DNA of 64,000 nt from Candidatus Latescibacterota bacterium (GCA_965208105.1 OZ242318.1:1664001-1728000); one strand, 5' to 3'. Counted from the stretch's first letter, positions 32,307-64,000 are shown. Numbers and translations are program-made. Notes: a model not told the origin generated them from the sequence alone.

Positions 32307-35261
32307 TTATAACAACGGTCCGAACTCGGTAAACCCGGTCAAGACCCGCACAAAGAACGACCAGGTATCATACTCCTCCCCCTGCCGCAACCGATCGTCG
32401 TAGTCCAGGCTGTCCCCTTTGAGACCTATGATGGTGTGAAGATCGTATCCGCGGTAGGCGGAGCGGTTGGCAAGGGTGGCAAAGGCGGTGCGGCGCTCGA
32501 GATTGTCGCGGTTCCGTACCCGGTCATGTCTTCTGTAGGGCAGTGCACCCAAACCTTGCAAGCCAACCCTCAAGGTGGTGCGTCGGAAAATGGGATACTT
32601 GATGCGCAGGATGGGGATCAGACTGAGCTCCGAGCGCAGGGCCCGGGGTGCATAGGTACCGGTAACCAGGCGGTCCGCATCCTGGTCCACGTGATGCAGG
32701 AGCAGGACTTTGCACTGCGGCCGAACCGTGAGGTTTCCCCAAATGACAGTGTACTCGGCCCGTTGAACCAAAGTCCAGTAGTCCAGCCTTCTGGCGCGCT
32801 GATCCTCTTGACCCTGTTGCCAGTTGACCCGAAGCCTCCACTTGTTCACCCACCGCAGGGCGGACCACGGCTGCAGCTCCGCTTCGAGATAGATCTCGTT
32901 GACGTAGCTATCCCGATAGGACAGGGGATCTGCCTGAATCTGACTAATGAAGGTTCGAGGGGTATTGTCATCTGGTAAAGTGGGATTCTGCGGTTGCTCA
33001 ACCAGAATAGCGAACTCATCGGCAATATCGTCCTCAACTCGCCGCATATAGTTTTCAAGGAGGAGACGCCAGCGCTCCCTGGTGTCCCGGCCGCGGAAGG
33101 TCAGCAGGGCATAGCTGGAGCGATTGCGCCCGTCACCGGCGACCTCCTCCACCGCAAAACGGCCGGCAGTTGCTGACCACCCGGATCTCGGTCCGACCTG
33201 CAGGAAGAGATGATACCCCCGCTGGCCGGGGAAATAGGGGTAGTCTGGACGGAGATCGTCTTCGCGGAAATCCGGCTCGTCGTTGTGGTTGCGATCCAAC
33301 CCGTAGACATACTCGTTCGGTTCCACCTCGAACATGAGAAATGGCTCTTCGTAGTCGGGTATGCGGTTGAAGTTGCGATTGGTGTCGGGAATACCGTCGC
33401 GGTCCTCGTCGCGGCCGGGGAAAACCCCGTCCGGATCGGTCGCTTCAAAATCAGGCACATGGCCAAGGGGCTGACCCATGCGCGTATCGGTGAAGCGGTC
33501 GCCGTCGTCGTTGTCCTGCACAAGCTGCCAGTACAGGGTGCGATTTCTCACTCCCTGTAGATGAATTGGAAAAAAGTCGGCCCCGGTGGGAAGATGGTGG
33601 CGGAGCTCGGTAGTGAAATCCGGCTGAATCGAGAAGTACTCCAGCCCCACGCGGCCGCGGTCCAACCTGCGAGCAGCATTTACGAAGTAGGCAGCCCCCG
33701 TTTCTCTGGAGCGGGATCCCTTTTCAAAAAAAGGCTTCTGCTCGACTTCGGCCGGATAGCGGGAGTAGCGCCGCGAGCGGGCCACCTCTCCGTGCACTTC
33801 CATACCCACAAGGCTCAGGTGGGCATCGGCGCTGTAGGTAAACAGGGCGGTATTTTCGCCCACCTCCAGTCGCACCCGTTGCAAATTGGAGCGGTCCTGC
33901 ACATTGCCCTTTGCCCGCAGCGCCGTGTGGTAATAGGTGGTATTGAACTGGGCGTAGCGCTTGCGGGCGCGAGGGTCCTCGTCGATCAAGGTGGCCACGT
34001 CCACCTTGTAGTCGTTGGACAGGACGACCTCCAGCTCCACCGATTCGACGAAGGGCTCCCGGGAAATGTCGAAGAGGTAGACGAGCTGGTCGTTTCCGTC
34101 GGCCTGCAGAACCTCGTCGGATGACTCAACTCGAAACAACTCGATCAAACTCTCCAGGTTCGTATCCGCGCTCACGTTTTCACCGTGCAGGTGGTCGATG
34201 CGGTAGAGATAGTCGGCGTACAAAGGCACTTCCCGGTTACGGTAGAAAAGGGAGGACTCAGTTTCACCCACGCTGCGAAACTGGTGGTAGGGAAAGGCGC
34301 GGAATTCACCAGTAGCTTGAGACACGGTTCCAACCTGGGAAGGGACGCCTGCCCGATGGCGAATCACCCGAGCCTGGAGGTCGGACCGCGGAACGCCGTT
34401 GACGATTAGCACGGGTTCCTGGACGACGGCTCCGCCGCGGCCGTCATCAGGGGAGTCGTCGGTAAATCGAAAGAGGACCCATCCGATGAGAGGCTGGCTG
34501 GGCCGTAACACGCCTTTCAAGGTGTTGCCGCTCGCGGTGCTGCGGAACATGTGCAGGTTGACGCCGGTAATTCCCAGTTGCAGTCTGCCCAGGTTTCCCT
34601 GCAAACGGCCTCCCAACAGCAGCGGGGAGGCGTCCGCAAACTCGGTGTTTTCGATGTACCAATTGGCACGTGCTACGCTATACCCCGGACGCTCCGGCCG
34701 GGAACCCAGCAAGGTGGCTTGGAGGGAGGGTGTGGCCAGGTCCACGCGCACCCCATCGAAATCGACCTTGGACAGGGTCAGCGGGGAGAAACGCGCAATT
34801 AGTGCATCTCCCAAAATTGCACTATAACCCCACGAACCCCGACTGTCCCGGGCAACAACAAGGTCGCCAAAAGCGTGCAAAAATACCCGGTAGTGTTTGA
34901 AGATCGAGCTGCCGTAGATATTGCCTCCGGCGGATGCTGCTTCTGGACCGCGCCGCTCGGTCCAGGCATAGAGATCATACCCGGTGGTGAGATAATCTCC
35001 CATGGAACTGTAAATGACTCGCGGCGCGTCGGAGTAGATCGTCCCGTCGGATCGGAACGCGGTGTGTCCCGGGTAGTTGGTGTAGGGCTGAAAGGCGAAG
35101 TTGCGATAGGAGGGAAGGGATGCCCTCAGGTAGAATTGCCGCGGCATTACCTCTGACAGGTGCACTTGTTGAGGTGGAGAAGCCCCGACCAGGATTGGAA
35201 AACAGACGAGGATGAGGAGGAATTGCCCAGCTGGGAGCAGTTTCGAGTTTTTTTCAATCAT
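32307..35261 (-). CDS. Large exported protein, uncharacterised ~1000-aa family, paralog A (most diverged)
   Basis: Signal-like N-terminus, shared blocks RFSPLTLSK, DNDDGDRF, DRNHNDEPD and YRDSYVNE, C-terminus FFVRVLTGFTEFGPLL. Confidence 0.85.
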   Translation of the reverse strand: MIEKNSKLLPAGQFLLILVCFPILVGASPPQQVHLSEVMPRQFYLRASLPSYRNFAFQPYTNYPGHTAFRSDGTIYSDAPRVIYSSMGDYLTTGYDLYAWTERRGPEAASAGGNIYGSSIFKHYRVFLHAFGDLVVARDSRGSWGYSAILGDALIARFSPLTLSKVDFDGVRVDLATPSLQATLLGSRPERPGYSVARANWYIENTEFADASPLLLGGRLQGNLGRLQLGITGVNLHMFRSTASGNTLKGVLRPSQPLIGWVLFRFTDDSPDDGRGGAVVQEPVLIVNGVPRSDLQARVIRHRAGVPSQVGTVSQATGEFRAFPYHQFRSVGETESSLFYRNREVPLYADYLYRIDHLHGENVSADTNLESLIELFRVESSDEVLQADGNDQLVYLFDISREPFVESVELEVVLSNDYKVDVATLIDEDPRARKRYAQFNTTYYHTALRAKGNVQDRSNLQRVRLEVGENTALFTYSADAHLSLVGMEVHGEVARSRRYSRYPAEVEQKPFFEKGSRSRETGAAYFVNAARRLDRGRVGLEYFSIQPDFTTELRHHLPTGADFFPIHLQGVRNRTLYWQLVQDNDDGDRFTDTRMGQPLGHVPDFEATDPDGVFPGRDEDRDGIPDTNRNFNRIPDYEEPFLMFEVEPNEYVYGLDRNHNDEPDFREDDLRPDYPYFPGQRGYHLFLQVGPRSGWSATAGRFAVEEVAGDGRNRSSYALLTFRGRDTRERWRLLLENYMRRVEDDIADEFAILVEQPQNPTLPDDNTPRTFISQIQADPLSYRDSYVNEIYLEAELQPWSALRWVNKWRLRVNWQQGQEDQRARRLDYWTLVQRAEYTVIWGNLTVRPQCKVLLLHHVDQDADRLVTGTYAPRALRSELSLIPILRIKYPIFRRTTLRVGLQGLGALPYRRHDRVRNRDNLERRTAFATLANRSAYRGYDLHTIIGLKGDSLDYDDRLRQGEEYDTWSFFVRVLTGFTEFGPLL

Positions 35262-35355
35262 CAGGAGTGCCGGCCTTTACCCCGGATGCCAAGAAGCAAC
35301 TCAGTGCAAAACCCCAGGAGCCTAACTTCCTGCCGCGGAAAAAATAGCAATTGTC

Positions 35356-35384
35356 AAAATAATTTTAAACTGTTCCCATGTCAA
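35356..35384 (-). promoter_or_regulatory. Sigma70-type promoter upstream of paralog A
   Basis: TTGACA-N17-TATTTT in an AT-rich intergenic patch about 95 bp upstream of the start. Confidence 0.6.
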
Positions 35385-35480
35385 TAAAAACGGAACTTGC
35401 CCCTGGTGTGTTGCGATCCCCTTCAAAATTCACTCCAAACTATAACATCTTCTCGGAGGCAGCTGATTCCCGAACCCTGT

Positions 35481-36314
35481 TCATCCCCCCGCCGCCCGGA
35501 TGATCTCCGCGACCCTGTCGGCGAAGCGCAGCTGGCTGTCGTCCTCCGGCGCGTAGCCGATCACGCGGCGGGCATTGGCCAGGCTCCAGAAGTTGTGGGC
35601 GTTGCCGCTGATGCCGTAGAAGATCTGGAAGGGCACGCCGTCGGGGTCGCGGATGTCCTCGGTCTCAATGCTCCTGACCACCAGTTGCACCTGGTCGCGC
35701 ACGCTGAGGTAGGCCCCCAGGCCGCGGTGCATCTTCTGCAGATCCCCGGGGTCGCAGTTGTCCATGTCCGTTTCCCGGGGACCGCCGATGCGCAGCTGCA
35801 CGTTCTCCAGCGCCGGCCCTTCCTTGCCGCAGGCAAAGAGGAAGCCCAGGAGCTCGTAGGAGGCCTTGGCCCAGCCGTAGAAGTTGTCCGACCGGGGCAG
35901 CATGCCGGGGGTGACGAAGTCCAGCCGCCCCGACCAGATCAGGTTCTCGTAGTAGTCGGCGGCGTGGTTGGAGCTGATGATCACCGCCCGCCGCACGCCC
36001 TCCTCCTGGCACACCCGGTAGACGTTGTGGGCCATGGTGATATTGTCGGACTCGGTCCAGAAGCGCTGCTTACCTTCGGCGCTGCGGACGAAGCCGCAGT
36101 GGACCACGGCGTCGGCTCCGCTGAAGTAGCGGCGGTAGGCGTCGCGGTCGCGCTCCAGCAGGTCGACGGTCTGAATTCTCCTCACTTCCCGTCCTTCGCG
36201 GTCGGTCCTTTTCACGTCCAGAAGCACGGTATCGTAGCGCTCCTGCAGTGCCGGCAGCATGCGTCCGGCGACGTAGCCCGCGGCTCCGGTGACGACGATT
36301 GTGCGCTTTTTCAT
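35481..36314 (-). CDS. NAD-dependent epimerase/dehydratase (uronate dehydrogenase-like SDR)
   Basis: VVTGAAGYVA, SSNHA, YGWAK (YxxxK), LRIG, YLSVRD and IGYAPEDDS. Start at ATG 36314. Confidence 0.88.
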   Translation of the reverse strand: MKKRTIVVTGAAGYVAGRMLPALQERYDTVLLDVKRTDREGREVRRIQTVDLLERDRDAYRRYFSGADAVVHCGFVRSAEGKQRFWTESDNITMAHNVYRVCQEEGVRRAVIISSNHAADYYENLIWSGRLDFVTPGMLPRSDNFYGWAKASYELLGFLFACGKEGPALENVQLRIGGPRETDMDNCDPGDLQKMHRGLGAYLSVRDQVQLVVRSIETEDIRDPDGVPFQIFYGISGNAHNFWSLANARRVIGYAPEDDSQLRFADRVAEIIRAAGG

Positions 36315-36527
36315 GGTCTCCACCTCGATTGGGGGTTTGAGTTGAAGGTTGCGATGCGCCGGCGTCCCTGCCGGCAGGGACGCAGCCCTTTCAGCCAGCC
36401 GCATGTCCGTACGCCCCGGAAAACAGAGGCCTGCGGTGCGTCGCCGGCCCTGGCGCCCCAGCTTTCCAACACCGCCCAGGCGCCTTATCATTCAGATATT
36501 GAAGAATATACCAATCAGGGGAGCCCC

Positions 36528-37949
36528 TTGAACATCCGCCTCAAAAGATCCCACCTTCTGGTTCTGCTTTTGGCGGCTGCCTGCGCCGCCGCCCTCGTCC
36601 TGCTCAGGCCCTCCCCGCCGGCAACTCCCCCCGAGCTGCCCCAGGTCCTGCTGGGGAAGGACCCCGGCGTGGTCGCCCTGGTCGAAAAGGTCCTGGCCGA
36701 GGTGGCCGCCGATCCCAGCAACCCGGAGCTGCGCATGCGCCTGGGCTACGCCTACGAGGCCAATTTCCTCGACTCCCTCGCCCTGCTGAGCTATGAGCAG
36801 GCCCTTGCCTCCGATGCCGCCAGGCCCCGCTGGTGGTACCGCCTGGCCAGGGTCAAGACCCGGCTGGGGGACCGTTCCGGGGCCGTTGCCGCCGCCGAGC
36901 GCGCCGCCGCCTTGCATGCCGATCACGCGCCCCTGCACTGGCGCCTGGGATTCTGGTACCTGGACCAGGGCCAGCTCGAGAAGGCCCGAAGCTCCTTCGA
37001 CCGCGCCAGTGCCCTGAAGCCCGACGCCGCCCCCGGGCACTGGGGGCTCGCCCGGGTCATGCTGCAGAGCCGCCGCCCCGAGCGCGCCGCGGCCATCCTA
37101 GAAGCCCTTTTGGAGCGAAGGCCCGACGACGCCTACGCCCGCCTGCTCCTGGGGACCGCCTACCGCCAAATGGGGCGGCCGGGGGATGCCAGGCTCGAGC
37201 TCGAGCGCGGCGCCGGCGCATCCCCCAGGTGGCGCGACGCCTGGGACGAGGAGATGGACAGCTACCGGCAGGGGCTGGTGGTGGAGCTGGGCAAGGCAAC
37301 CCGCCTCGCCGACGAAGGCCGGCCCGACGCGGCCATCCCCATTATGGAGGAGCTGTGCAGGAAGTACCCCCAGGACCCGCGCCTCTTCGACAGGCTCGGC
37401 GGCCTCTACCTCGAAACGCAGCGCTACAAGCAGGCCCTGTCCACCTTCGAGGAGGGGCTTAGACACCATCCAGACAATGCCTGGTTCCACCTGAAATCGG
37501 GAGCCCTGCAGGCGGAGATGGGCAATCATGCCGAGGCCCTGGGGAGCCTGGACCGGGCGGTCGCCCTCGACTCCACCCTGGGTGCGGCGCACCAGAGACG
37601 GGGCCGGGTTCTGATGGAGACGCGGCGCCACGCCGAAGCCGCCGAAGCCTTCGCCCGGGCCCTGCGCCAAGATCCCCGCAACGCCACCCTCCACCTGGAG
37701 CTGGGCCTGGCCCGCTACGAGCTCGGGCAGTTCGCCGCCGGGCTGGTCAATTTGCGCCGCGCGGTGGAGCTCGACTCGACCCGCGCCCGGACCTTCGTCG
37801 CCCTGGGCCTGACCCAGGCGAGGCTGGGCGCCCTCGACGGCGCCCAGCGGTCGCTGCGGCGCGCCGCCGCCCTCGAACCCCATTTCCCCCGGTTGGGAGC
37901 CTACCAGGACCAGGTGCGGGAGATGCGAAGCCAGGGGAGCGATCCGTGA
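36528..37949 (+). CDS. Tetratricopeptide repeat protein with N-terminal membrane anchor
   Basis: TTG start after GGGGAG, hydrophobic N-terminus, many TPR units (e.g. LHWRLGFWYLDQGQLEKARSSF). The track's 35397 start is an antisense overlap of the epimerase. Confidence 0.85.
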   Translation: MNIRLKRSHLLVLLLAAACAAALVLLRPSPPATPPELPQVLLGKDPGVVALVEKVLAEVAADPSNPELRMRLGYAYEANFLDSLALLSYEQALASDAARPRWWYRLARVKTRLGDRSGAVAAAERAAALHADHAPLHWRLGFWYLDQGQLEKARSSFDRASALKPDAAPGHWGLARVMLQSRRPERAAAILEALLERRPDDAYARLLLGTAYRQMGRPGDARLELERGAGASPRWRDAWDEEMDSYRQGLVVELGKATRLADEGRPDAAIPIMEELCRKYPQDPRLFDRLGGLYLETQRYKQALSTFEEGLRHHPDNAWFHLKSGALQAEMGNHAEALGSLDRAVALDSTLGAAHQRRGRVLMETRRHAEAAEAFARALRQDPRNATLHLELGLARYELGQFAAGLVNLRRAVELDSTRARTFVALGLTQARLGALDGAQRSLRRAAALEPHFPRLGAYQDQVREMRSQGSDP

Positions 37950-39697
37950 AGTTCCCGGCCGATGTAGGCTATGTGGCCCTGCTCGTTTCCTCTCTCCTCG
38001 CCAGCGGCTGCGGCTCCATTGGGGAGGACCGGGAGCCGGCGGGAGAAGAAGGCAAGCCGGACCCCGCGCCCTGGTTCGATGAGGTGGCCGCAGCGCGCGG
38101 GATCGATTTCGTCTTCGAGTCCGGACACCGGGAGCGCCACTACATGCCCGAGAGCATGGCCGGCGGCGGAGCCCTCTTCGACATGGACGGGGACGGGGAC
38201 CTGGACGCCTACCTGGTGCAGGGGGGAAGGCTGGACGCCCTCCCCCGGGAGCGCCCCGGCAACCGGCTCTACCGCAACCTGGGTGGAGGCCGCTTCGCCG
38301 ACGTCACCGCAGGCAGCGGCGCCGACGACCGCGGCTACGGCATGGGGGCGGCCACCGGCGACTACGACAACGACGGCGACATGGACCTCTACGTCACCAA
38401 CGTGGGCGCCAACGTGCTGCTGCAGAACCAGGGCGGGGGACGCTTCGCCGACGTCACCGCATCCGCCGCCGTCGGCGATACCGCGTGGGGGGCGAGCGCC
38501 ATGTTCCTCGACTACGACAACGACGGCGACCTCGACCTCTTCGCCACCAACTACGTCACCTGGTCCATCCACCGCGACAAGGTCTGCCTGGGGCCGCTGG
38601 GGGCCCCCACCTACTGTCCCCCGGGACGCTCCAGGTGGAGCAATCCCACTCCCGACGTTCTCTATCGCAACAACGGCGACGGCACCTTCTCCGACGTTTC
38701 CGCGGAGTCGGGCATAGCCTCGGCCAAAGGCAACGGTCTCGGGGTGGTCAGCGGCGACTTTGACAACGACGGCCGCACCGATATCTTTGTCGCCAACGAC
38801 GGCACCGTGAACCACCTCTGGCTCAACCAGGGAGACGGCAGCTTCGTCGAGGACGCCATGCTGCGCGGCTGCGCCCGCGACGAGAGCGGCCAGGTCAAGG
38901 CCGGCATGGGGGTGGCCTCCGAGGACGTGGACGGCGACCTCAACTTCGACCTGCTGGTGGTCAACCTGCGCCAGCAAACGGATTCATTCTACCGCAACCG
39001 GGGAGCGTTCTTCAGCGACGAGACCGCGGCCGCGGGACTGGTCCTGGACAGCTTCGCCCTGACCCGCTTCGGGGTCGGGTTCACCGACTTCGACAACGAC
39101 GGGCTGCTGGACCTGTACATCGCCAACGGCCGCATCGACAACAGCAACAAAGTGATGTTCTCCTCCGATATCTTCGCCGAGCCCAACCTGCTGCTGCGCG
39201 GCCGACCGGGACTGCGCTTCCAGAAGGTGGAGCCCATGGGCGGGACCCGCGAGCTCCTGGTGCACACCAGCCGCGCCGCGGCCTTCGGCGACGTGGACGA
39301 CGACGGCGGCGTCGACGTGCTGGTGGTAAACCGCGACGGCCCCACCTACCTGCTGCGCAACGCGGTGGGAGGCAGGGGCGCCTGGATTGCCTTCGAGGTG
39401 CTCGATGCCGGGGGCAGCCCCTCCCTGGGCGCCAGACTCACCTTCAAGGTGGAAGAAAGGAAACTGATCAGGGAGGTGCGCACCGCCTACAGCTACCTGG
39501 CCGCCAGCGACCCCCGCGTTCACGTGGGCCTGGGCGGCGCCGGCGGGGTGTCGGAGGTGGAGGTGCGCTGGCCCGAGGGGCAAAGGGAATGGTTCGGCGA
39601 TTACGAGGCCGGCCAACGGGTGGTGCTGCGCCGCGGCCTCGGGCGAACCGGGCACCAGGCCGGCGCGAATGCAGCCAGCGTCCCGTCGCAGAGATAG
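37946..39697 (+). CDS. CRTAC1 / ASPIC-UnbV family FG-GAP repeat lipoprotein
   Basis: Lipobox LASGC, repeated D(Y/F)DNDG.xDL and LYRNxGxG.F.DV motifs, C-terminal SYLAASDPRVHVGLG...VRWP. Confidence 0.92.
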   Translation: MKFPADVGYVALLVSSLLASGCGSIGEDREPAGEEGKPDPAPWFDEVAAARGIDFVFESGHRERHYMPESMAGGGALFDMDGDGDLDAYLVQGGRLDALPRERPGNRLYRNLGGGRFADVTAGSGADDRGYGMGAATGDYDNDGDMDLYVTNVGANVLLQNQGGGRFADVTASAAVGDTAWGASAMFLDYDNDGDLDLFATNYVTWSIHRDKVCLGPLGAPTYCPPGRSRWSNPTPDVLYRNNGDGTFSDVSAESGIASAKGNGLGVVSGDFDNDGRTDIFVANDGTVNHLWLNQGDGSFVEDAMLRGCARDESGQVKAGMGVASEDVDGDLNFDLLVVNLRQQTDSFYRNRGAFFSDETAAAGLVLDSFALTRFGVGFTDFDNDGLLDLYIANGRIDNSNKVMFSSDIFAEPNLLLRGRPGLRFQKVEPMGGTRELLVHTSRAAAFGDVDDDGGVDVLVVNRDGPTYLLRNAVGGRGAWIAFEVLDAGGSPSLGARLTFKVEERKLIREVRTAYSYLAASDPRVHVGLGGAGGVSEVEVRWPEGQREWFGDYEAGQRVVLRRGLGRTGHQAGANAASVPSQR

Positions 39698-39754: not shown

Positions 39755-40576
39755 ATGAAGACCGAACTGAGGCAGGAGCAGATCGATTCCTACCAGCGCG
39801 AAGGCTGGATCATCGTCGAGGACTTCCTCGACGCCGCAGAGCTGCAGGAGCTCTGCGACGGGGTGGAGGAATCGGTGCGGCAGATGGGCAACAGAAAGAT
39901 CACCGGCAAGGGCAACGAGATGATCGTCGACGGCAGGGACGAGTACTACGATCGGGTCTTCCTGCAGCGCCTGAACATGTGGAGGATCAACCCCACGGTC
40001 AGGAAGTACATGCTCGACCCCGGGCTCGGGGAGATGCTCTGCAAGCTCTCCGGAAACGACGGCATCCGCGTGTGGCACGACCAGACTCTGCAAAAGCGTC
40101 CCTGGGACAACCCCACCTCGTGGCACATAGACGTTCCCAACTGGTCATTCCACTCGCCCAACGCCATCTCCATCTGGATCGCCATGGACGACGCCACCGT
40201 CCAGAACGGCTGTCTCTACTACATTCCCGGCTCGCACAAGATCGCCAAATACGAAAAGAAGGGTCACTTTCGCCACCAGATCGACTTCCTCTTCGAGGAG
40301 TACCCCGAGTTCCGCCGCATCGAGCCGGTGGCCGCCGCCATGAAAGCCGGCTCGGCGGGCATCCACAACGGCCTCATGGCGCACGCGGCCGGACCGAACA
40401 TGACTCATTCCCCGCGCCGCGCCATGACCTGCGCCTACATGCCCGACGGTGCGGTCTTCAACGGCATTCCGAACATCCTCACCGACGAGCAGGTGGCCTC
40501 TCTCAACCCCGGCGACCCGCTCGACGACGAGAGCCAGACCCCCCTGGTGTGGTCGCGCCACAAGGCCCCGGCCTGA
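39755..40576 (+). CDS. PhyH-family dioxygenase
   Basis: YQREGW, WHID, WIAMDDATVQNGCLYYIPGSH, HAAGPN and RRA. Confidence 0.9.
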   Translation: MKTELRQEQIDSYQREGWIIVEDFLDAAELQELCDGVEESVRQMGNRKITGKGNEMIVDGRDEYYDRVFLQRLNMWRINPTVRKYMLDPGLGEMLCKLSGNDGIRVWHDQTLQKRPWDNPTSWHIDVPNWSFHSPNAISIWIAMDDATVQNGCLYYIPGSHKIAKYEKKGHFRHQIDFLFEEYPEFRRIEPVAAAMKAGSAGIHNGLMAHAAGPNMTHSPRRAMTCAYMPDGAVFNGIPNILTDEQVASLNPGDPLDDESQTPLVWSRHKAPA

Positions 40577-42643: not shown

Positions 42644-44098
42644 CTATTGCCTGTGGGAGCCGACCCGGTAGGAGTACAGGCTGGCGGCGTTGTCCGCCTG
42701 CATGTGCAGCCGGATCCTCCTGCCGATGAAGGGAGTCAGGTCGCGGCGCTCCTTCCCCCAGGTGATCTCGAAGTCGGTGGAGTCGCCCCGCACCAGCCCG
42801 TTGCACTCATCCAGCGAGTAGCCCCCGGGCACCTCCATGTCGTCGACGACCCGCAGGCGCAGTTGGCCGAAGAGCACCAGGGCGTTGACCGAGAGCCGCG
42901 GTCCGCCGACGAGAATGGGCTCGGTCATCAGCTCGCCTCCGCCGATGCCGCAGCGCATCGCGGCGAAGGCGTCCCTGCGCAGGGTCAGCATTCCGATGGA
43001 ACTGTGGAAGTTGCCCCCGGTTCCGTGTCCCTGGGGTTTGCCAGAGTAGCCCATGTAGAGGGTGTCCCCTTTCAGGGCGGGCGCGCTCAGGCCGCAGGCC
43101 GCCCAGCCGCCGTCCCATGATCCGGGAGGACCCACCGAAAAAAACTCCTCGCGGCGGCCGACCCGCTGCCAGTGCTCGACCTCGCGCGCCGAGGCCAGCT
43201 CCATGGCGCTCAGCTCGGTGGGATGCCAGACCCACAGTACGCCCAGGTACTGGTTGCCGTAGACGAAGGGCACCATCTGGTAGAGCTGGATGTCGGGGGG
43301 GTCCATGTCGTCCGGTTTGAGCACGGTCTTCAGTGGGGTCCAGTGGACGAAGTCGGCGCTGGTGGACAGGGCGATTACGCGGCGGTACTTCTTCCACTCC
43401 AGGACGAAGTGGTCCATGAGGGAGTTGTAGCGCCGCGAGGCGGAGATGTAGCCCTGCCCGATGGGATCGCAGGCCAGCACCCCGGCGTCGCCGGCGCGCG
43501 GGACCAGGAGCCCCTCCTCCGGGTTCCAGTGGATCCCGTCGGCGGAGCAGCAGGCGAACATGCCGTGGCTGTCGGCCACCGACTTCATGAAAAGGCCCCG
43601 GGCCTGGGGGTCCTCCGGACCCGGGCTTCCCCCGGGCTGAATGTACAGACCCAGCTTGTAGCGCCGCGCCGGGTCCTCTTCCAGGGGGTCCACCACAACC
43701 CCCCAGGGGTCGCCCCTGGTGGCCAGCACGATGTTGTTGTCCTTGGACCCACGGAACTCGACCAGGCCCAGCTCGGGCCGCTCCCAGCGGACGCCGTCGC
43801 TGGAGGTGGCGTAGCAGAGGAAGGTGGGAGCGCCGGCGTGCATCTCCTCGATGCTGCAGGACCAGGTCCAGTACCACATCTTGAAGAGGTTTTCCTCCGC
43901 CTCGTAGTGCAGGCCGCCCTTGATCTGCACGGTGCGGCCCTCCCATGGCCGTTCCGGCCTCAGCACCGGCTCCGTCTGCACCCTCGCGGGTCGCTGCACC
44001 TTGCGCAGAAAGCCGGGATGGTCCTGCACCTCGGCGTCGTCGACGAAGAGGTGCAATCCGGGGTCGTAGAGACCGCTCCCGTTTCCGTCCTCTGTCAT
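42644..44098 (-). CDS. Beta-propeller glycoside hydrolase-like protein
   Basis: HLFVDD, PERPWE, YATSSDGVRWERPELGLVEFRGSKDNN, SADGIHW, LRRDAF and LYSY. Confidence 0.7.
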   Translation of the reverse strand: MTEDGNGSGLYDPGLHLFVDDAEVQDHPGFLRKVQRPARVQTEPVLRPERPWEGRTVQIKGGLHYEAEENLFKMWYWTWSCSIEEMHAGAPTFLCYATSSDGVRWERPELGLVEFRGSKDNNIVLATRGDPWGVVVDPLEEDPARRYKLGLYIQPGGSPGPEDPQARGLFMKSVADSHGMFACCSADGIHWNPEEGLLVPRAGDAGVLACDPIGQGYISASRRYNSLMDHFVLEWKKYRRVIALSTSADFVHWTPLKTVLKPDDMDPPDIQLYQMVPFVYGNQYLGVLWVWHPTELSAMELASAREVEHWQRVGRREEFFSVGPPGSWDGGWAACGLSAPALKGDTLYMGYSGKPQGHGTGGNFHSSIGMLTLRRDAFAAMRCGIGGGELMTEPILVGGPRLSVNALVLFGQLRLRVVDDMEVPGGYSLDECNGLVRGDSTDFEITWGKERRDLTPFIGRRIRLHMQADNAASLYSYRVGSHRQ

Positions 44099-46197: not shown

Positions 46198-46222
46198 TTT
46201 GACTCCTTGTCGTTTCCCGAGG

Positions 46223-50831: not shown

Positions 50832-50917
50832 CTTGCCTCAATCCGGGAAAAACCGCCTGGCGAAAATTTACTGCAATGCATCAATGCGGAACCTTCAGGC
50901 GGCCCCCGGTGCAGGCC

Positions 50918-53900
50918 CTAAATCGCCCTGCCGAACTCGGTGAACCCCACCACACCCCGCACGAAGAGGGACCAGGAATCGAACTCCCTGAAGCGCTGGA
51001 AGTCCTCGTCGAAGTCGGCCTCGTCCCTGCTGATCCCGACGACGGTCGTCAGGTCGTAGCCGAAATAGCGCGACCGGTTGGTCAAGGTCGCGAAAGCAGT
51101 GCGCTGCTCGAAGCTGAAGCGGCTGGCCACCCTGTCCTTGCGCCGGTAGGGAAGCGGACCCCAGCCCTGCAATCCCATCTGCAGCGCGGTGCGGCTGAGG
51201 AGCGCATAGCGCAGGCGCAGAATGGGGATCGATCGGATCTCGTCCTGCAGCTCCAGGTCCCGCTCCCTGTCGCTCAGGCGCAACAGCATGAACTTGAACT
51301 GCGGCGTCGCGCTCAGCTTGCCCCAGCTCCAGGTGTACTCGGCGCGGCTGACCCAGGTCCAGTAGTCCAGCCGGCGCCTCTGCTGGTATAGGCCGCTGTG
51401 GAGCCGCCCGCCCTGCTGCCAGTTGAAGCGAACCCGGAATTTCTGCACCAGATTGAAGGTGGACCAGGGGTTGAGCCTGCCCTCCAGGTAGGTCTCGTTG
51501 ACATAGCTGTCCTGGTAGCGCAGCAGGTCGCTCACGAAGCGGTTGAAGTAGATGGGAGGTCCGTCGCCGAAATAGACCCCCCTGCTGCCTTCATAGAAGA
51601 TGCCGCGGCCGGCGAAATTGTGGATCCGCGGTCCTGGGTCGTCGTCGGTCACCATGTACTCGTCGGCGATGTCGTCCCGGACGCGGCGAAAGTGGTTCTC
51701 GAAAAACAGCCGCCGCAGGCGTTCGACACCCTGCCGCCGGTAGTTGAGCAGGGCATAGGTCGAGCGGTTGCGGCCGTGCCCGGCGATCTGACTTGTGGAA
51801 TAGTGGCCCGCGGCCAGGGACCAGCCCCGGGTGAGGTCCCACTGCCCGAAGAGGTGGTAGCCGCACTGGTCGTAGTCGTAGGGATAGTCCACCTCGCCGT
51901 CGTCCTCGCGCGGGTCCGGCTCGTCGTTGTTGTTGCGGTCGAAGCCGTAGGCGTAGGCGTTGGGCTCCACGTCGTACATCAGGAAGGGCTCGTCGTAGTC
52001 GGGTATCCGGTTGAGATTGCGGTTGGTCTCCGGGATGCCGTCGTTGTCCTCGTCCTGCGCCAGGAACACCCCGTCGGTGTCGAAGCCCAGACCGTCATTG
52101 ATTACGCCGGGAAGATTGCCGAGGCGCCGGTCTGGGTAGCGGTCCCCGTCGTCGTTGTCCTCCACCGTCTGCCAGTAGATGGTCTCGTTGGCCATGCCGA
52201 AAATATTGGTGAAGTACAGGTTAGCCTCCCAGTCCAGGTAGGTGCGCATCTCGGTCTGGAATTCCGGGTTGATGGCGAAATACTCGGCGCCGGCGCGGCC
52301 ACGCTCGAACCAGCGCGTGGCATTGACGAAATAGGCCGCTCCGCGGTCGGCGAAGCGCTCTCCGTCCTCGAAGGAGGGCAGCCCCGCCTCCTGCGCCGGG
52401 TAGCGCGAGTAGAGGCTGGAGCGCGCGTACTCCCCGGTGATCTCCATCCCCGCCAGACGCAGGTTGGCATCGGCGCTGTAGACGAAGTGACCCGTATTCT
52501 CACCGATGTCGATGCGCCTGCGCTTCAGGTTGGAGCCGTCGCGGACGTTGCCTCGGGCGCGCAGAACGGTGCGGTAGAATGTGCTCAGCATGCGCGCTAC
52601 GTAGGTTTTGCCGCTCGGGCTCTGGGTGGACAACAGCGCCACGTCGACCCGGTAGTCGTTGGCCAGGATCGCCTCCACCTGGATTGACTCGACCCGCGGC
52701 TCTCCGGCCACGTTGAAGAGGAAAACCAGTTGCTCCTCGCCGTCTGCATGGAGAGTGGTCCGGGGGGAATCCACCGCCATGTTGTCGAGCAGGACCTCCA
52801 GGTTGGTATCGCCGCTCACGTCGATGCCGGCCTCGTGGTCCAGGTGGTAGAGGTAGTCGGCGTAGAGGGGAATCTCGCGGTCGCGATAGAAGTTGCTGCC
52901 CCACCAACTGCGCCGCGCATTGTAGACGTTGTAGTTGGTGGGGCGAAACTCGCCGGTAGCCTGGGAGAACCTGCCCACCTGGGGACTGATTCCGGCTCGG
53001 TGGCGCACCACATGGGGCACCAGGTCCGGGCGCGCTTCACCGTCGACGACCAGCTGCACCTCCTGCACCACCGCTCCCCCGGTCCCGTCCAGTGGCGAGT
53101 CGTCGGCGAAGCGCACCATGATCCATTCCACCAGCGGCTGGTCCGGACGCAGCCGTCCCTTGAGGCCGTTTCCCGGCCGGGTGCTCTGAAACACGTGCTG
53201 ATTCACCCAGTTCAGGCCCAGTTGCATCCTCCCCAGGTCCGCCTGCAGCCTGCTGCCCAGCAGCAGCACCGAGTCGTCGGCGAAGTGCACGTTTTCCACC
53301 GCCCACACGGGCTTCTCCTCCACGTAGGACTTGGGGCGCTCGACCCGCGACCCCATGGCGGTGAACTGCAGATAGGGGGTCGAGGCATCCAGCCGGACTC
53401 CGTTGAAGTTCACCTTGGACAGGGTCAGAGGCGTGAAGCGGCCCATGAGAGCATCGCCGACGATCAGGCTGTAGCCCCAGTTGCCGTAGCCTTCGCGACC
53501 GATCAACATGCTGTCGAAAAGGGGGATCCACGGTCCCCCCGAGCCCAGTCCCCCGCCCGAATCCTTGAAGATGGCGCTGCCCCACTCCTGGCCGGGGATG
53601 CGGGTCTCCTCCCAAGCGTAGATGGGATAGCCGCTGATCAGATAGTTGCCCATGGGTCCGTAGTAAGCCCGGGGCGCGTCGGCGTAGGGGATGGTGTGGT
53701 CGGGATAGTTAGCGTAGTTGTTCAGGGCGAAGTTGCGGTATGCCGGACGTTCCCAGCGCAGGAAGGGACGGGGCGCCACGGTCTGCTCCAGGGGCAGTTT
53801 CTGCCCTTCGACCGCGAGGGCCCCAAAGACCGCCGCCACGAGCCAGCCTCCCCACCTGAGGGCGCCTCCATCCGTCCCTGTCCTCGGCGGCGGAAATAGT

Positions 53901-53920
53901 CGCATAACCTCTATATACAA
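50918..53920 (-). CDS. Large exported protein, uncharacterised ~1000-aa family, paralog C
   Basis: Hydrophobic leader, all family blocks present, C-terminus LFVRGVVGFTEFGRAI. Alternative start at 53905. Confidence 0.88.
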   Translation of the reverse strand: MYIEVMRLFPPPRTGTDGGALRWGGWLVAAVFGALAVEGQKLPLEQTVAPRPFLRWERPAYRNFALNNYANYPDHTIPYADAPRAYYGPMGNYLISGYPIYAWEETRIPGQEWGSAIFKDSGGGLGSGGPWIPLFDSMLIGREGYGNWGYSLIVGDALMGRFTPLTLSKVNFNGVRLDASTPYLQFTAMGSRVERPKSYVEEKPVWAVENVHFADDSVLLLGSRLQADLGRMQLGLNWVNQHVFQSTRPGNGLKGRLRPDQPLVEWIMVRFADDSPLDGTGGAVVQEVQLVVDGEARPDLVPHVVRHRAGISPQVGRFSQATGEFRPTNYNVYNARRSWWGSNFYRDREIPLYADYLYHLDHEAGIDVSGDTNLEVLLDNMAVDSPRTTLHADGEEQLVFLFNVAGEPRVESIQVEAILANDYRVDVALLSTQSPSGKTYVARMLSTFYRTVLRARGNVRDGSNLKRRRIDIGENTGHFVYSADANLRLAGMEITGEYARSSLYSRYPAQEAGLPSFEDGERFADRGAAYFVNATRWFERGRAGAEYFAINPEFQTEMRTYLDWEANLYFTNIFGMANETIYWQTVEDNDDGDRYPDRRLGNLPGVINDGLGFDTDGVFLAQDEDNDGIPETNRNLNRIPDYDEPFLMYDVEPNAYAYGFDRNNNDEPDPREDDGEVDYPYDYDQCGYHLFGQWDLTRGWSLAAGHYSTSQIAGHGRNRSTYALLNYRRQGVERLRRLFFENHFRRVRDDIADEYMVTDDDPGPRIHNFAGRGIFYEGSRGVYFGDGPPIYFNRFVSDLLRYQDSYVNETYLEGRLNPWSTFNLVQKFRVRFNWQQGGRLHSGLYQQRRRLDYWTWVSRAEYTWSWGKLSATPQFKFMLLRLSDRERDLELQDEIRSIPILRLRYALLSRTALQMGLQGWGPLPYRRKDRVASRFSFEQRTAFATLTNRSRYFGYDLTTVVGISRDEADFDEDFQRFREFDSWSLFVRGVVGFTEFGRAI

Positions 53921-54103
53921 AATGCAGATGGATAATCCAACAGAAAAGGCGGCGGCTCGCGGTTCGAGGTGCGGAGGGTGTCACGGGCAGGCCTGAACGG
54001 GCGCCCCGCCAACTCCTGGCCCCAAAGGAATGCGCAGACCGAGGGCAGCCCCGGATGAGGGAATTCCCCGTTGGGAGGATCCGCGCGGGATGGTGCCCGG
54101 GGC

Positions 54104-57028
54104 CTAGAGGGGCCGGCCGAACTCGCTGAAACCCACGATGCTGCGCACGAAGAAGGTCCAGGAATCGAACTCTCTGAAGCGCTGGATTTCCGCCTCGAAG
54201 TCCTTCTCGTCCCTCTTCGCCCCCACCGTGGTCATCAACTCGTAGCCGAAGTACCTGGTGTAGTTGGTGAGGGTCGCGAAGACGGTGCGCTGGTCGAAAC
54301 TGTTGCGCACGGCGACCCGGTCCCTGCGCTGGTAGGGCAGCGGTCCCGCACCCTGCACCCCGAATTTCAGGATCGTCCGCGGCAACAGGGCGTAGTCCAG
54401 ACGCAGAATGGGGATCGAGCGCATCTCGTCCAGGAAGTCGCGGCCCAGGTCGCGGTCGGTGGAGCGCAGGAGCATGAATTTGTACTGTGGGGTCAGGCTC
54501 AATCTTCCCCAGTTCCAGGTGTAGTCGGTGCGGCTCACCCAGGCCCAGAAGTCGAGCCGGCTGCGGCGCTGAAAAATTCCGGGACGCAGCTCCCCTCCCC
54601 GCTGCCAGTTGAAGCGCAGGCGGAATTTCTCCACCACGTTGAGCCCGGGCCAGAGCCTGAATCTCCCCTCGAGGTAGGTCTCGTTGACGTAGCTGTCCTG
54701 GTAGGGCATCAGGTCGGCGACGATGGTGCTGCTGAAGATGGGAGGCCTGTCCTGTCCGAAGAATTCCACCGTATTGGGGGCGCTGAGTCCGCGGAATGAG
54801 AACAGGTTCGACCGATCCGGGAGTTCGTCCAGGACCACGTAATCGTCCGGGATGTCGTCTTCGACCCGGCGCAGTCCGGTCTCGAAGAAGAGCCGCTGCA
54901 GGCGCTCTATTCCCCGGCGCTGGTAGGTCAGCAGGGCATAGGTGGAGCGGGTGCGCCCGTGTCCGGCGGTCTGCGCCGTGGCGTAATGGCCCGCCGCCAG
55001 GGACCAGTGCCCTCCCAGATCCACCTGTCCGAAGAGGTGATAGCCGCGCTGGTCGGGATCGTAGGGATAATCGTCCTGGGTATCGTCCTCGCGCTGGTCA
55101 GGCTCGTCGTTGTGGTTGCGGTCGAGACCGTAGACGTAGACGTTGGGCTCCACGTCGTACATCAGGAATGGCTCCTCGAAGTCGGGGAGGAAGTCGCCGT
55201 CGCGGTTGACCTCCGGCAGGCCGTCGTTGTCCTCGTCCTGGGCCAGGGTCACCCCATCCAGGTCATAGTCCTGGCTGTCGTTGGTGAATCCCACCAGGTT
55301 GCCGACGCGGCGGTCGGGGAAGCGGTCGCCGTCGTCGTTGTCCTGCACCAGGTCCCAGTAGACCATGTCGTTGTACAGGCCCATGAACGGGCCATTCCAT
55401 AAACTGACCTCCCGGAGCATGTAGGTCCGCATGGTGGTGCTGAAGTCCGGGTTGATCGAAAACCACTCGGCCCCCGCCCGTCCGCGCCCGAACCAGTGCA
55501 GGGCATTGATGTACCAGGCCGAGCCATGCTGCGAGAAAGGTGGGGCTTCATCGAATAGAGGCTGGCCCTCCTGCTGGCCCGGGTAGCGCGAGTAGAGGGC
55601 GGAGCGCCCGTATTCTCCCGTGATCTCGAGGCCGGGCAGCGCCAGCTTCACATCGGCGCTGTAGGTGAAGATGCCGGTATTTTCCCCCACCTTGAAGCGC
55701 ACCCGCCGCAAATTGGACATATCGCGCACGTTGCCCTCCGCGCGCAGCGCGGTCCGGTAGAAGGTGGTCAGATAGCGGGCATGGTAGGTTCTGCCCCGGG
55801 GGTCCTGATCGTTCAGCATGGCCACCTCCACCCGGTAGTCGTCGGCCAGAAGGGCCTCCACTTCCACCGACTCGACCCGCCTTTCGGCGCTGACGTCGAA
55901 AAGGAAGACCAGGTTGTCTTCGCCGTCGGCGCGCAGCAGTCCCCCTGGCGATTCCACCTGGATATTCTCCACCAGGCTTTTCAGGTTGGTGGCCTTGCTC
56001 ACGTCGATGCCGGCCTCGTGGTCCAGGCGGTAGAAATAGTCCGAGTAGAGGGGAATCTCGTCACGGTCCCGGTAGAAGAGCCTGGCGCCGCGAAAGGCCG
56101 TATAGTTCTGGGCGCGGAAGCGGCCGGTGGCCTGCAGCACCGATCCCACCTGGGGGGTGAGGCCGCCCCGGTGGCGCACCACCTGCGGAACCAGGTCCGG
56201 GCGCAGCTCGCCGTTGACCACCAGCCGCACCTCCTGCACTGCGGCTCCCCCCAGGCCGTCCCGCGGCGAATCGTCCGAGAAACGCACCACGATCCAGTCC
56301 ATCAGGGGCTGGTCCGGACGCAGCCGCCCCTTGAGGCTGTTTCCGGGCTGGGTGCTCTGGTAGATATGGGAGTTCGCCCCGTTCAACCCCATTCGAAGGA
56401 TCCCCAGGTCGAACTGCAGGCGGCTGCCCAGAAGCAGAACCGAGTCGTCGGCATAGTGGGTCTTTTCGATGGCCCAGGGAGCCGGCACCTCCTGGTAGTT
56501 GTGCGGGCGCTCGATGCGCGAGGCCATTCCGGTCAACTGCAGCCTGGGAGTGGAAAGGTCCATCCGCATGCCGTTGAAATTCGTCCTCGACAAGGTCAGG
56601 GGAGAGAGGCGAGCGACCATTCCATCCCCCACCATCAGGCTGTAGCCCCAATTGCCGTAGCCGTCCCGTCCCACCACCAGGGCGTCGTAGACTTTTTCCC
56701 AGATGAGCTGGTACATCTCGTTGGGCTTGTAGATGGAGCTGCCGAATTCCTGTCCGGGGAAGCGGGTCTCCTTCCAGCTGTAGAGGTCGTAGCCGGAGAT
56801 GAGGAAGTCGCCCATGGGCCCGTAGTAGGCGCGCGGCGAGTCTTCGTAGGGAATGGTATGGTTGGGATAGTTGACGTAGGGGCGCAGGGCGAAATTGCGG
56901 TAGTCCGGCCGCTCCCAGCGCAGGAAGGGGCGCGCCGTGGGTATCTCCTCGGCTCCCCCGGTGCGCGACTCTTCGGCATGGGAGCCGGCCCCCGAAAGCA
57001 GCAGGGCAAGGGCCAATCTCCAGCGCAT
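54104..57028 (-). CDS. Large exported protein, uncharacterised ~1000-aa family, paralog D
   Basis: Start at ATG 57028 gives the signal peptide MRWRLALALLLSGAGSHA. Family blocks present. C-terminus FFVRSIVGFSEFGRPL. Confidence 0.88.
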   Translation of the reverse strand: MRWRLALALLLSGAGSHAEESRTGGAEEIPTARPFLRWERPDYRNFALRPYVNYPNHTIPYEDSPRAYYGPMGDFLISGYDLYSWKETRFPGQEFGSSIYKPNEMYQLIWEKVYDALVVGRDGYGNWGYSLMVGDGMVARLSPLTLSRTNFNGMRMDLSTPRLQLTGMASRIERPHNYQEVPAPWAIEKTHYADDSVLLLGSRLQFDLGILRMGLNGANSHIYQSTQPGNSLKGRLRPDQPLMDWIVVRFSDDSPRDGLGGAAVQEVRLVVNGELRPDLVPQVVRHRGGLTPQVGSVLQATGRFRAQNYTAFRGARLFYRDRDEIPLYSDYFYRLDHEAGIDVSKATNLKSLVENIQVESPGGLLRADGEDNLVFLFDVSAERRVESVEVEALLADDYRVEVAMLNDQDPRGRTYHARYLTTFYRTALRAEGNVRDMSNLRRVRFKVGENTGIFTYSADVKLALPGLEITGEYGRSALYSRYPGQQEGQPLFDEAPPFSQHGSAWYINALHWFGRGRAGAEWFSINPDFSTTMRTYMLREVSLWNGPFMGLYNDMVYWDLVQDNDDGDRFPDRRVGNLVGFTNDSQDYDLDGVTLAQDEDNDGLPEVNRDGDFLPDFEEPFLMYDVEPNVYVYGLDRNHNDEPDQREDDTQDDYPYDPDQRGYHLFGQVDLGGHWSLAAGHYATAQTAGHGRTRSTYALLTYQRRGIERLQRLFFETGLRRVEDDIPDDYVVLDELPDRSNLFSFRGLSAPNTVEFFGQDRPPIFSSTIVADLMPYQDSYVNETYLEGRFRLWPGLNVVEKFRLRFNWQRGGELRPGIFQRRSRLDFWAWVSRTDYTWNWGRLSLTPQYKFMLLRSTDRDLGRDFLDEMRSIPILRLDYALLPRTILKFGVQGAGPLPYQRRDRVAVRNSFDQRTVFATLTNYTRYFGYELMTTVGAKRDEKDFEAEIQRFREFDSWTFFVRSIVGFSEFGRPL

Positions 57029-57419
57029 GAACCTGGACAGAAAGGACGCGATCGCGAAATTTCCGGTTATGTGCTCAGAATTACGTGCCAAACCCGTTCT
57101 TTTCGAAATCTGGCTTCCGAGGCAGGGTCTTCCGTCAGATATACAGGAACAGGCATCGGGCAACCCCGCGATTCCGGGAACCTTAATTCCGAGGAATCGA
57201 TCAGAAAGGGTAAATTTAGAAAAACCCGGGGGAAGCGACAATTCCTCCCAGGCAACTCCTTCCCGAATGAACGGGGATCGAGTCAGGCCCTTTCCCGCTT
57301 GCACCTGCCAGCAAGCGAGCCTATAATGTCTGCAGAGGCACGGTCGGACCGCTTCGGCGCACGGTTTTCCGGCCGGAAAAGGCAAGTGAGACCGAAACCT
57401 ACCGTGAGGAAAATTTGAA

Positions 57420-59084: not shown

Positions 59085-59096
59085 ACGGAATCCAAC

Positions 59097-62865: not shown

Positions 62866-63039
62866 ATTTTCCTTTCCCTCCTATTTTCTTATTTTGGAAC
62901 CTCAAAGATAGGACCTTTGCGAGGGCAGGCCAATTCGGGGACAGACGGACCCCAGGATAGCCGCAGGGACAACCGGGACCGCCGGGATAATCCCGGAATC
63001 ACCTTACCTCCATCTGCTGCGCAACAGCGAGATCTGACC

Positions 63040-64000
63040 ATGGCAGTTCTATCCAGGACGATGCGCTGCGCCTGCCGCGGCCTTTTTCTGGCACTCGGAG
63101 TCTGGAGTGCCGTCTCAGGGTCCCCGCGCCTGAACAGCGACCAGATCCTGGAATCCCGGCCCTTCCTGCGCTGGGAGCGCCCTGCCTACCACAACTACGC
63201 CCTGCGGACCTACGCAAACTACCCCGATCACACCTTTCCCTATGCCGATTCGCCCCGGACCTACTACGGCCCGCTGGGGGACTACCTGACCAGCGGATTC
63301 GACCTCTACAGCTGGAATGAGACGCGCATGCCGGGGCAGGAATTCGGAAGCACCATTTTCAAACCCAACGACTCCGGCACCCTGGTGTGGAACAAAGTCT
63401 ACGACGCGGTGGTGATAGGGCGCGACGGCTACGGCGACTGGGGCTACAGTCTCATCGTGGCCGACGGGCTCATCGCCCGCTTCTCGCCGCTGACCTTGTC
63501 TATGACCGACTTCAACGGAGTCCGCCTCGACGTTTCCACCCCCCGCCTCCAGCTCACCGGACTGGCCTCCCGCAGCGAGCGCCCCCACACCTACATCTCG
63601 CGCTCCATCTTCGTCCTCGGCCAGACCCACATCGCCGACGACTCGACCCTTCTCCTGGGGGGCCGCGCCCAGACCGACCTGGGGCTTCTGCGCCTGGGAT
63701 TGAACTGGGCAAACACCCACGTCTACCAGAGCACGCGGCCGGGCAACAGCCTCAAAGGCGTGCTGCGGCCGGACCAGCCGCTGATGGACTGGATCCTCGT
63801 GCGCTTCTCCGACGACTCTCCGGCCGACGGCAGCGGCGGCGCCGTGGTGCAGGAGGTCCGCCTCGTGATCGACGGCGACCCTCGGCCGGACCTGGAGCCC
63901 CGGGTCATCCGCCAGCGGGCGGGCGTCGGACCCCAGGTGGGCACCGTGTCCCAGGCCACCGGGCGCTTCCGGGCGACGGACTACACCTCCTTCAGAGGGC
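63040..64000 (+). CDS. Large exported protein, uncharacterised family, paralog E (truncated by the window end)
   Basis: Manual translation: MAVLSRTMRC...SRPFLRWERPAYHNYALRTYANYPDH...YYGPLGDYL...PGQEFGSTIFKP...RFSPLTLS...NSLKGVLRPDQP...QATGRFR. No stop before 64000, so it is absent from the track. Confidence 0.88.
   Translation, partial: MAVLSRTMRCACRGLFLALGVWSAVSGSPRLNSDQILESRPFLRWERPAYHNYALRTYANYPDHTFPYADSPRTYYGPLGDYLTSGFDLYSWNETRMPGQEFGSTIFKPNDSGTLVWNKVYDAVVIGRDGYGDWGYSLIVADGLIARFSPLTLSMTDFNGVRLDVSTPRLQLTGLASRSERPHTYISRSIFVLGQTHIADDSTLLLGGRAQTDLGLLRLGLNWANTHVYQSTRPGNSLKGVLRPDQPLMDWILVRFSDDSPADGSGGAVVQEVRLVIDGDPRPDLEPRVIRQRAGVGPQVGTVSQATGRFRATDYTSFRG

Follow-up and report, generated by a model that had tools for sequence, protein, structure and literature searches.

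A multicopy family of predicted outer-membrane barrels in Candidatus Latescibacterota and its link to an ExbB-ExbD-ExbD/TPR operon

Members of the Candidatus Latescibacterota are uncultured, widespread, and thought to degrade complex glycans. In a 64,000-nucleotide stretch of one such genome (GCA_965208105.1 OZ242318.1:1664001-1728000, "the window"), five homologous open reading frames (ORFs) encode large exported proteins that carry no family name, which raises the question of what these proteins are and what they do in the cell envelope. The original prediction, made from the DNA sequence, was that they constitute a lineage-expanded family of β-barrels acting as uptake channels for solutes or glycans, or as surface receptors. 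With ~40 genes of 3 kb each in a 4.85-Mb genome, this nameless family occupies ~2.5% of the genome and represents a gap in the understanding of these cells. Besides "non-specific porins", the accessible part of a genomic survey of the phylum mentions only the import of iron and B12 via TonB (PMC4454575).

The data discussed below establish an unnamed, exported family of predicted barrels that is anciently tied to an operon encoding ExbB, two ExbD, and a tetratricopeptide repeat (TPR) protein, and that has radiated in one lineage into catabolic gene clusters. The parts of the original prediction concerning the missing name, the exported barrel, and the lineage expansion thus stand, while the uptake role, deduced from the gene neighborhood, gains strength from the operon of the deep branches without being proven by it. 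We consider it an even bet (a probability of roughly 0.5) that the proteins form a new importer family of the outer membrane, gated and probably coupled to a motor. As a family-level variant of energized or gated outer-membrane transport, the finding is real and notable; the evidence is good for the family as such and for its partnership with the ExbBD operon, and it is the function that we infer, that is, the direction of transport, the substrate, the energization of the window copies, and the binding of Ca2+.

An unnamed family of predicted outer-membrane barrels

The five copies in the window, referred to as A to E, are:

32307..35261, minus strand: copy A, 984 aa, 1418 bits with the family profile
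47841..50831, minus strand: copy B, 996 aa, the protein used for the structure model
50918..53920, minus strand: copy C, with a start at TTG 53920 (1000 aa) or at ATG 53905 (995 aa)
54104..57028, minus strand: copy D, 974 aa when started at Met 57028, in an open frame that reaches 57385
63040..64000, plus strand: copy E, N-terminal 320 aa, the gene being interrupted by the end of the window

An ORF check and pairwise alignment confirmed the five ORFs (~975-1000 aa) at these positions and the tandem arrangement of B, C, and D, which are separated by gaps of 86 and 183 nt. The Met that precedes the signal-like leader of copy D is the one at 57028, and in the genome (coordinates prefixed G000) the ORF of copy E extends to G000 1729979. 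Copy A is 52-54% identical to the others and copies B to E are 61-67% identical among themselves (288-971 aligned residues); moreover, each of the five scores >1400 bits with a profile built from relatives. Judged by these sequence comparisons, the five window copies are homologs, and their likeness is not a chance resemblance. The 11 motifs that had been described as running in the same order through the copies do so: B, C, and D have all of them, A has 8 of the 11, and E, being truncated, has 5 of the first 6.

In the genome as a whole, 44 ORFs match the family profile; of these, 40 exceed 800 aa in length and 34 exceed 1000 bits in score. The 34 high-scoring ORFs form one clade (SH-like support 100, FastTree), within which pairwise identity ranges from 44 to 96% (median 51%) and only five short stretches are variable. 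A hydrophobic, signal-like stretch is located 25-35 residues ahead of the first conserved motif in 33 of these 34 close paralogs, as scored with a crude Kyte-Doolittle threshold that the 34th barely misses, in keeping with the predicted leader; no lipobox Cys is evident in the leaders of the 34. For 18 of them, a counterpart outside the genome is 86-100% identical, and the closest paralog inside the genome is 57-82% identical. Since the external counterparts are closer than the in-genome paralogs, most copies are older than the strain or species splits and have been kept individually.

Within the phylum, the family is found in 94 of 151 sampled genomes, including all 63 genomes of its own taxonomic family (f1) and all 13 of f10, and it is absent from the 30 genomes of f2 and the 19 of f3. 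Together with the profile count of 44, this distribution upholds the lineage expansion. A first-look count reached 195 candidates, as yet unconfirmed, in one genome. Relatives in named records are nearly all titled Candidatus Latescibacterota, with some labeled Gemmatimonadaceae, Gemmatimonadetes, or "uncultured bacterium".

Searches of Pfam, NCBIfam, and PDB sequences gave no match above threshold. The sole Pfam match of the window proteins is to SlpA_C (PF21620), at 18-26 bits and hence below the 35-bit cut-off. SlpA_C is matched at E ≤ 0.01 by 27 of 35 members, in every case with <35 bits and with ~110 of 656 profile positions covered; the alignment pairs residues ~437-554 with profile positions 192-304 (best E 5.3e-8). 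NCBIfam returned no match at all, and a PDB search with one protein and two profiles returned only GAPDH, restriction-enzyme, and nanobody matches (E 0.015-1.6), which are not meaningful. In a collection of 5.8 billion proteins, 264 matches at E ≤ 1e-3 were obtained among 8000 scored candidates, and "hypothetical protein" is the only name among the 120 matches listed; 1.84 billion cluster representatives gave 537 matches at E ≤ 1e-3. The 30 closest clusters in the ESM Atlas are all unnamed, and the closest named one, DUF6029 "TBDR-like barrel" (0.89), is a lead only. In the literature on Latescibacteria, at the level of titles and abstract openings, the barrel family is not described.

The original prediction had also found no TonB plug, POTRA, or autotransporter signature, and Pfam gave the same result. 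The Plug domain (PF07715) has no match at E ≤ 1 in the four window proteins searched (4/4) and none at E ≤ 0.01 in 35 of 35 members, and the same model detects 23 receptors elsewhere in the genome. Aligning the family alignments A1 and A2 with that of these 23 TonB-dependent transporters (TBDTs) by hhalign gave a probability of 0.5%, equal to that of unrelated controls. Nor did Pfam detect an S-layer homology (SLH) domain or PorP/SprF in the window proteins.

An AlphaFold2 model of copy B, based on a 35-sequence alignment, is of medium confidence (pLDDT 69.5, pTM 0.69). It is nearly all β between residues 138 and 989, and the leader (residues 2-25) is its one long helix; residues 21-136, 584-626, and 655-675 have pLDDT values <50. 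Foldseek matches MtrB (E 1.3e-7), SlpA, TonB-dependent receptors, SprA, and LptD, and all strong Foldseek and VIA-align matches are outer-membrane barrels, which supports the predicted exported β-barrel. TM-scores to known barrels are 0.1-0.3 (0.15-0.19 for TBDT barrels), so that no known barrel is close to the family. The strand count, read from the secondary-structure string of the model only, is ~26-28. The alternating strands had been assigned to the C-terminal third; strands are indeed predicted there, but they extend from ~138 to 989, and the restriction to that third does not hold.

Three segments are common to all branches of the family: a short N-terminal box, in which Y57 and N59 occur at ≥90% in 89 sequences, a very acidic segment rich in D/N-x-D-G motifs that probably binds Ca2+, and the terminal strand. 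An inserted β-rich domain is a further family-wide feature.

Deep branches and the ExbB-ExbD-ExbD/TPR operon

The genome carries seven deep-branch ORFs with ~30% identity to the window copies. They are located in three clusters (loci L081-L084):

G000 3850583-3882000: deep-branch cluster
G000 4581110-4599145: deep-branch cluster
G000 1772248-1793475: deep-branch cluster

The clusters are built on a module that, according to Pfam and BLAST, has the order DUF4159 protein, discoidin (F5/8 type C) protein with a FlgD_ig/C-terminal sorting domain (CTD) tail, one or two barrels, TPR protein, and MotA/ExbB, with ExbD(s) and lipoproteins downstream of ExbB. The TPR protein of the module is 1046-1101 aa long and has a single N-terminal hydrophobic segment. 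MotA/ExbB has only five matches in the genome, three of which lie inside the deep-branch clusters. A 141-aa ORF beside one of these three matches a solved ExbD (7ajq_F, E 7.8e-6), and tblastn with this ORF locates two ExbD after ExbB in two clusters and a truncated remnant in the third. Between the first two module copies, ExbB and a 244-aa lipoprotein are 95-99% identical, and these sequences suggest that a recent partial duplication left the truncated ExbD. The canonical ExbB of the genome also has two ExbD alongside (tblastn), and it is adjoined by the only TonB_C match above cut-off. The cluster at G000 1772248-1793475 forms an island of 20 kb whose GC content (51-56%) is below that of the genome (~65%), and it holds a copy of the window type (G000 1772248). 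As to DUF4159, a literature text search found the name only in the Pfam database paper.

The same arrangement recurs in other genomes. We collected the 14 external loci whose ExbB is closest to the barrel-linked ExbB (44-58% identity), which come from 12 genomes in five taxonomic families, with up to 20 kb around each. All 14 have ExbB-ExbD-ExbD, and 13 of them also encode the ~1100-aa TPR protein. One or two barrels lie directly upstream of the TPR gene in 12 of the 14, and the other two loci end at contig edges. The TPR proteins of the operon are collinear over their full length (E 2e-54). The 850-aa TPR protein beside copy A in the window was considered as a homolog of these and was rejected (E 0.02). 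The small genes of the operon vary: in other genomes, genes for a ~190-aa exported protein and a ~145-aa lipoprotein lie between the TPR gene and ExbB, and in this genome genes for proteins of 244, 206, and 184 aa, lipoprotein-like or exported, follow ExbB. None of these small proteins has a Pfam or PDB match or any likeness to TonB.

In a FastTree phylogeny (no bootstrap, long branches flagged), the 12 operon-linked barrels are scattered over the deep branches, with at least seven label changes, and are split across the midpoint root, with the window-type clade nested between them.

Import, docking, or structure: weighing the functions

Since the older branches share an operon with the TPR protein and ExbB-ExbD-ExbD, the family would have originated as the outer-membrane component of machinery powered by the proton motive force. 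In the reading that we favor, the proteins are exported by Sec and form large outer-membrane barrels. One branch would then have multiplied to ~34 copies in the lineage of the window, spreading into catabolic clusters, with each copy acting as a substrate-dedicated gate that lets breakdown products of glycans or other organic compounds into the periplasm. At a minority of loci, the barrel might be supplied by a surface protein that is encoded next to it and anchored via type IX secretion (T9SS). Shared ExbBD/TPR motors would act in trans to open the window copies, much as a single TonB serves many TonB-dependent receptors, and the acidic, putatively Ca2+-binding segment and the N-terminal box would together gate the lumen.

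The closest published gene logic, compared by gene order only, is that of Fibrobacter succinogenes, from the FCB (Fibrobacteres-Chlorobi-Bacteroidetes) group. According to the published work, FSU_2396-FSU_2403 encode an OmpA-family protein, two TPR proteins, ExbB, ExbD, ExbD, and TonB, are up-regulated on cellulose, and have been proposed to drive cellodextrin import via an unidentified barrel (PMC6851124). Both systems thus combine an outer-membrane protein with TPR protein(s), ExbB, and two ExbD, whereas the OmpA-family protein and TonB set the Fibrobacter cluster apart. If the motor link is true, the family might, by analogy of gene order, point to the missing barrel of the Fibrobacter cellodextrin system. 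It would also widen the range of ways in which diderm bacteria power transport across a membrane without an energy source of its own, and could serve as a marker for annotating catabolic loci in the phylum.

A more far-reaching version of the import model is possible, albeit doubtful. It would make the family part of a third kind of energized outer-membrane importer, next to the classical TonB-dependent receptors and SusCD, in which a plug-less giant barrel, gated by the N-terminal box and a Ca2+-stabilized acidic insert, is driven by a TonB-less motor of ExbB, two ExbD, and a periplasm-spanning, membrane-anchored TPR protein of ~1100 aa. T9SS-anchored, lectin-like proteins would act as feeders, and the ~34 substrate-specific gates would amount to the phylum's own polysaccharide utilization loci.

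The import model places the family near the TBDT/SusC systems, with which it shares many large outer-membrane barrels per genome, a location in catabolic loci, sometimes a surface binding protein, and the link to ExbB-ExbD; TBDT and SusC structures are also among the fold matches of the family model. The differences are nevertheless substantial. The family lacks Plug and TonB_dep_Rec, its predicted strand count exceeds the 22 of TBDTs, its operon has the ~1100-aa TPR protein instead of TonB, and its surface partners are sorted by T9SS rather than being lipoproteins. A search of the entire genome (93.9% complete) for SusD (PF07980) gave no match. Membership of the TBDT/SusC group was therefore rejected on the basis of the missing Plug, the hhalign result, and the missing SusD. 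Candidates for Plug are fewer in genomes with the barrel (median 17 in 9 f1 genomes) than in those without it (median 35 in 19 f2 genomes); these counts, unconfirmed and obtained at a very strict E-value, are a weak hint that the family replaces TBDTs.

Several observations weigh against gated, motor-coupled import. The function is one that we infer, and the energization of the window branch is extrapolated from relatives with ~30% sequence identity; an ExbB, ExbD, or T9SS-cargo gene adjoins none of the five window copies. The operon contains no recognizable TonB, and the one TonB_C of the genome is located elsewhere. The 14 external loci were picked by ExbB similarity, such that ExbB rows with ≤43% identity, which include all listed barrel-lacking genomes of f2, f3, and f8 as well as several barrel-bearing genomes, fall outside the sample. 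Moreover, the likeness of the paralogs over their whole length implies less divergence than would be expected of substrate-specific receptors, and the barrel and the membrane protein DUF6785, a frequent neighbor (see below), are each found without the other across taxonomic families. Finally, the structure model has medium confidence, its TM-scores are low (0.1-0.3), and pLDDT is <50 in its N-terminal region (residues 21-136) and its acidic region (584-675).

The alternative that survives best, though we regard it as unlikely, is that the proteins let selected substrates diffuse passively, as large porins of the CymA or maltoporin kind that happen to lie in catabolic loci, while the deep branches would have their ExbBD operon as a separate specialization of no service to the window copies. 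Such channels would not account for the conservation of the N-terminal box and the acidic segment across both the motor-linked and the window branches, nor for the window-type copy (G000 1772248) within a motor cluster, and a barrel with >24 strands would require a gate.

A somewhat less probable alternative is that the barrels are outer-membrane platforms on which T9SS-secreted surface proteins, or a surface complex of several proteins, would dock, along the lines of the PorP/SprF anchors or the Fibrobacter cellulose complex, with the motor serving assembly or surface movement. The combination of ExbB, two ExbD, TPR protein, and barrel presumably resembles the Agl-Glt gliding machinery of Myxococcus. 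An iterated profile of the sorting domain identifies 56 T9SS-sorted proteins in the genome, which also encodes the T9SS translocon SprA. Seven of the 56 directly adjoin a family member on the same strand and an eighth overlaps a member by 67 nt, so that 8 of 40 members have such a neighbor compared with <1% expected by chance; discoidin proteins with a CTD also lie upstream of the deep-branch barrels. PorP-like anchors are known for type B CTD cargo, as stated in one report (PMC9143113). The sorting domains here are, by contrast, of type A: in the neighboring family of ~650-aa exported proteins, TIGR04183 is above cut-off in 3 of 3, and type A domains require no PorP-like anchor. Likewise, 32 of the 40 members, including all five window copies, have no adjoining CTD protein. 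The family thus resembles PorP/SprF in that the gene of an outer-membrane barrel adjoins that of a surface protein sorted by T9SS, and differs in a barrel roughly three times larger, in the lack of any sequence match, and in an adjacency limited to 8 of 40.

A structural role, in which SlpA/OmpM-type proteins tether or organize the envelope, appears very improbable. It draws on the SlpA_C matches in 27 of 35 members, the only sequence-level link of the barrel family, and on SlpA structures among the top Foldseek matches. Work on SlpA (Deinococcus/Thermus) describes a very large barrel whose pore insertions are stabilized by acidic metal sites (PMC9388160). The family, however, has SlpA_C scores that never reach 35 bits, no SLH domain, no coiled coil, and no long helix beyond the leader, and ~40 differentiated copies in catabolic clusters are unlike what a structural role would call for. 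As an SlpA-type connector, the family was rejected for lack of an SLH domain and a coiled coil. Equally remote is that the barrels are usher-, PgaA-, or PelB-like export pores for polysaccharide or protein, as they adjoin genes for hydrolases, dehydratases, and oxidoreductases rather than for glycosyltransferases or chaperones, and their copy number is well beyond that of any known exporter.

The catabolic neighborhood of the window copies

The import model also draws on the genes around the window copies. The window is a catabolic region that encodes glycoside hydrolase (GH) family 32 and GHL10-like proteins, esterases, amidohydrolases, four PhyH dioxygenases, an ILVD/EDD dehydratase, an enolase-superfamily protein, ThuA, and TPP enzymes; a Gfo/Idh/MocA oxidoreductase follows slightly past the window end. 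The GH32 gene lies at 5238-6689 and hints at fructans as candidate substrates, as the GH130-like neighbors described below do at β-mannosides. Copy A is the first gene of a same-strand catabolic run that reaches down to ~12318. The neighbors that concern us here are:

15117..17090, minus strand: multi-pass membrane protein with DUF6785 and DUF6784, 11 hydrophobic segments, in the gene run of copy A
23801..25399, minus strand: further copy of C0
30270..32285, minus strand: TPR and thioredoxin-like (AhpC/TSA, ResA-like) protein, 22 nt downstream of copy A
35397..39697, plus strand: pair of an 850-aa TPR protein and a 583-aa FG-GAP/ASPIC protein, in divergent orientation to copy A; the pair recurs near other members
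42644..44098, minus strand: further copy of C0
46223..47722, minus strand: C0, a GH130-like leaderless protein (499 aa), directly downstream of copy B

C0 denotes a family of ~500-aa proteins with 72 members genome-wide, of which the window holds three, and no Pfam or NCBIfam match at threshold. Its similarity to GH130 is weak (PDB 9fj8, E 1.5e-3; 7fip, E 3.3e-3; 4onz, E 4.4e-3), as is that to the NCBIfam β-1,2-mannobiose phosphorylase (E 1e-3); these sequence matches raise the possibility that C0 is a novel branch of the glycoside phosphorylases or hydrolases. The regions within 3 kb and within 10 kb of family members make up 6.3% and 13.8% of the genome, and these regions hold 12 and 24 of the 72 C0 genes, and 9 and 14 of the 28 DUF6785 genes, respectively. 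C0 and DUF6785 also follow one deep-branch barrel, and a DUF6785/6784 gene is located ~3 kb downstream of the end of the copy E gene (G000 1733098-1735038; L080:5098-7038). At 66 loci with full flanks in other genomes, the raw counts, which have no background rate, are 30 for C0, 22 for the T9SS-sorted family (C5), 21 for a second barrel, and 14 for DUF6785.

DUF6785/6784 has ~25 full-length copies in this genome and occurs across the phylum (137 of 151 genomes), and all 14 control genomes lack it; a literature text search found the name DUF6785 in no paper. It was considered as an obligate inner-membrane partner of the barrel and rejected, as it is found in the barrel-lacking f2 (30/30) and f3 (19/19) and is absent from the barrel-bearing f10 (0/13).

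Paralogs of PhyH (window 104-1255, 39755-40576, and 40706-41494; L080:3543-5024), one of them fused to HEAT repeats, are scattered through the catabolic genes and recur near family members genome-wide (families C4 and C7). Between copies D and E, at 59097-61937 on the minus strand, a 946-aa protein has a spermidine-synthase domain and matches the NCBIfam fused MFS/spermidine synthase subfamily with 43 bits (cut-off 40).

The GC content of the window is 0.58-0.69. Copy A has a third-position GC content (GC3) of 0.70 compared with 0.83-0.87 in B to D, and the 4-kb bin at 32001-36000 has a GC content of 0.597; different expression or a more recent arrival of copy A are both possible. Its closest paralogs in the genome are 77-78% identical. 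The segment at 8301-10757 has a GC content of 0.49-0.59 and is without the long ORFs typical of the genome. It includes tandem 186-aa ORFs (9358-9918 and 10046-10606) that are 63% identical to each other and have sub-threshold Lipocalin_4 matches, as well as a 267-aa ORF without a match.

Promoter and terminator scans of 46000-58000 gave sites no more numerous than in shuffled sequence, and Rfam and tRNA scans of the window found nothing. In one metatranscriptome run, contigs of 205-313 nt, each with 6-12 differences, align to copies B, C, and D; they are compatible with transcription of a close relative, bearing in mind that RNA libraries can carry DNA and that contigs give no level. Relative to the window, contigs from one DNA run have a 21-nt insertion at position 54103, between C and D, which looks like a strain-level intergenic variant. 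The window stretch is present in sponge and marine metagenome runs from 9 studies.

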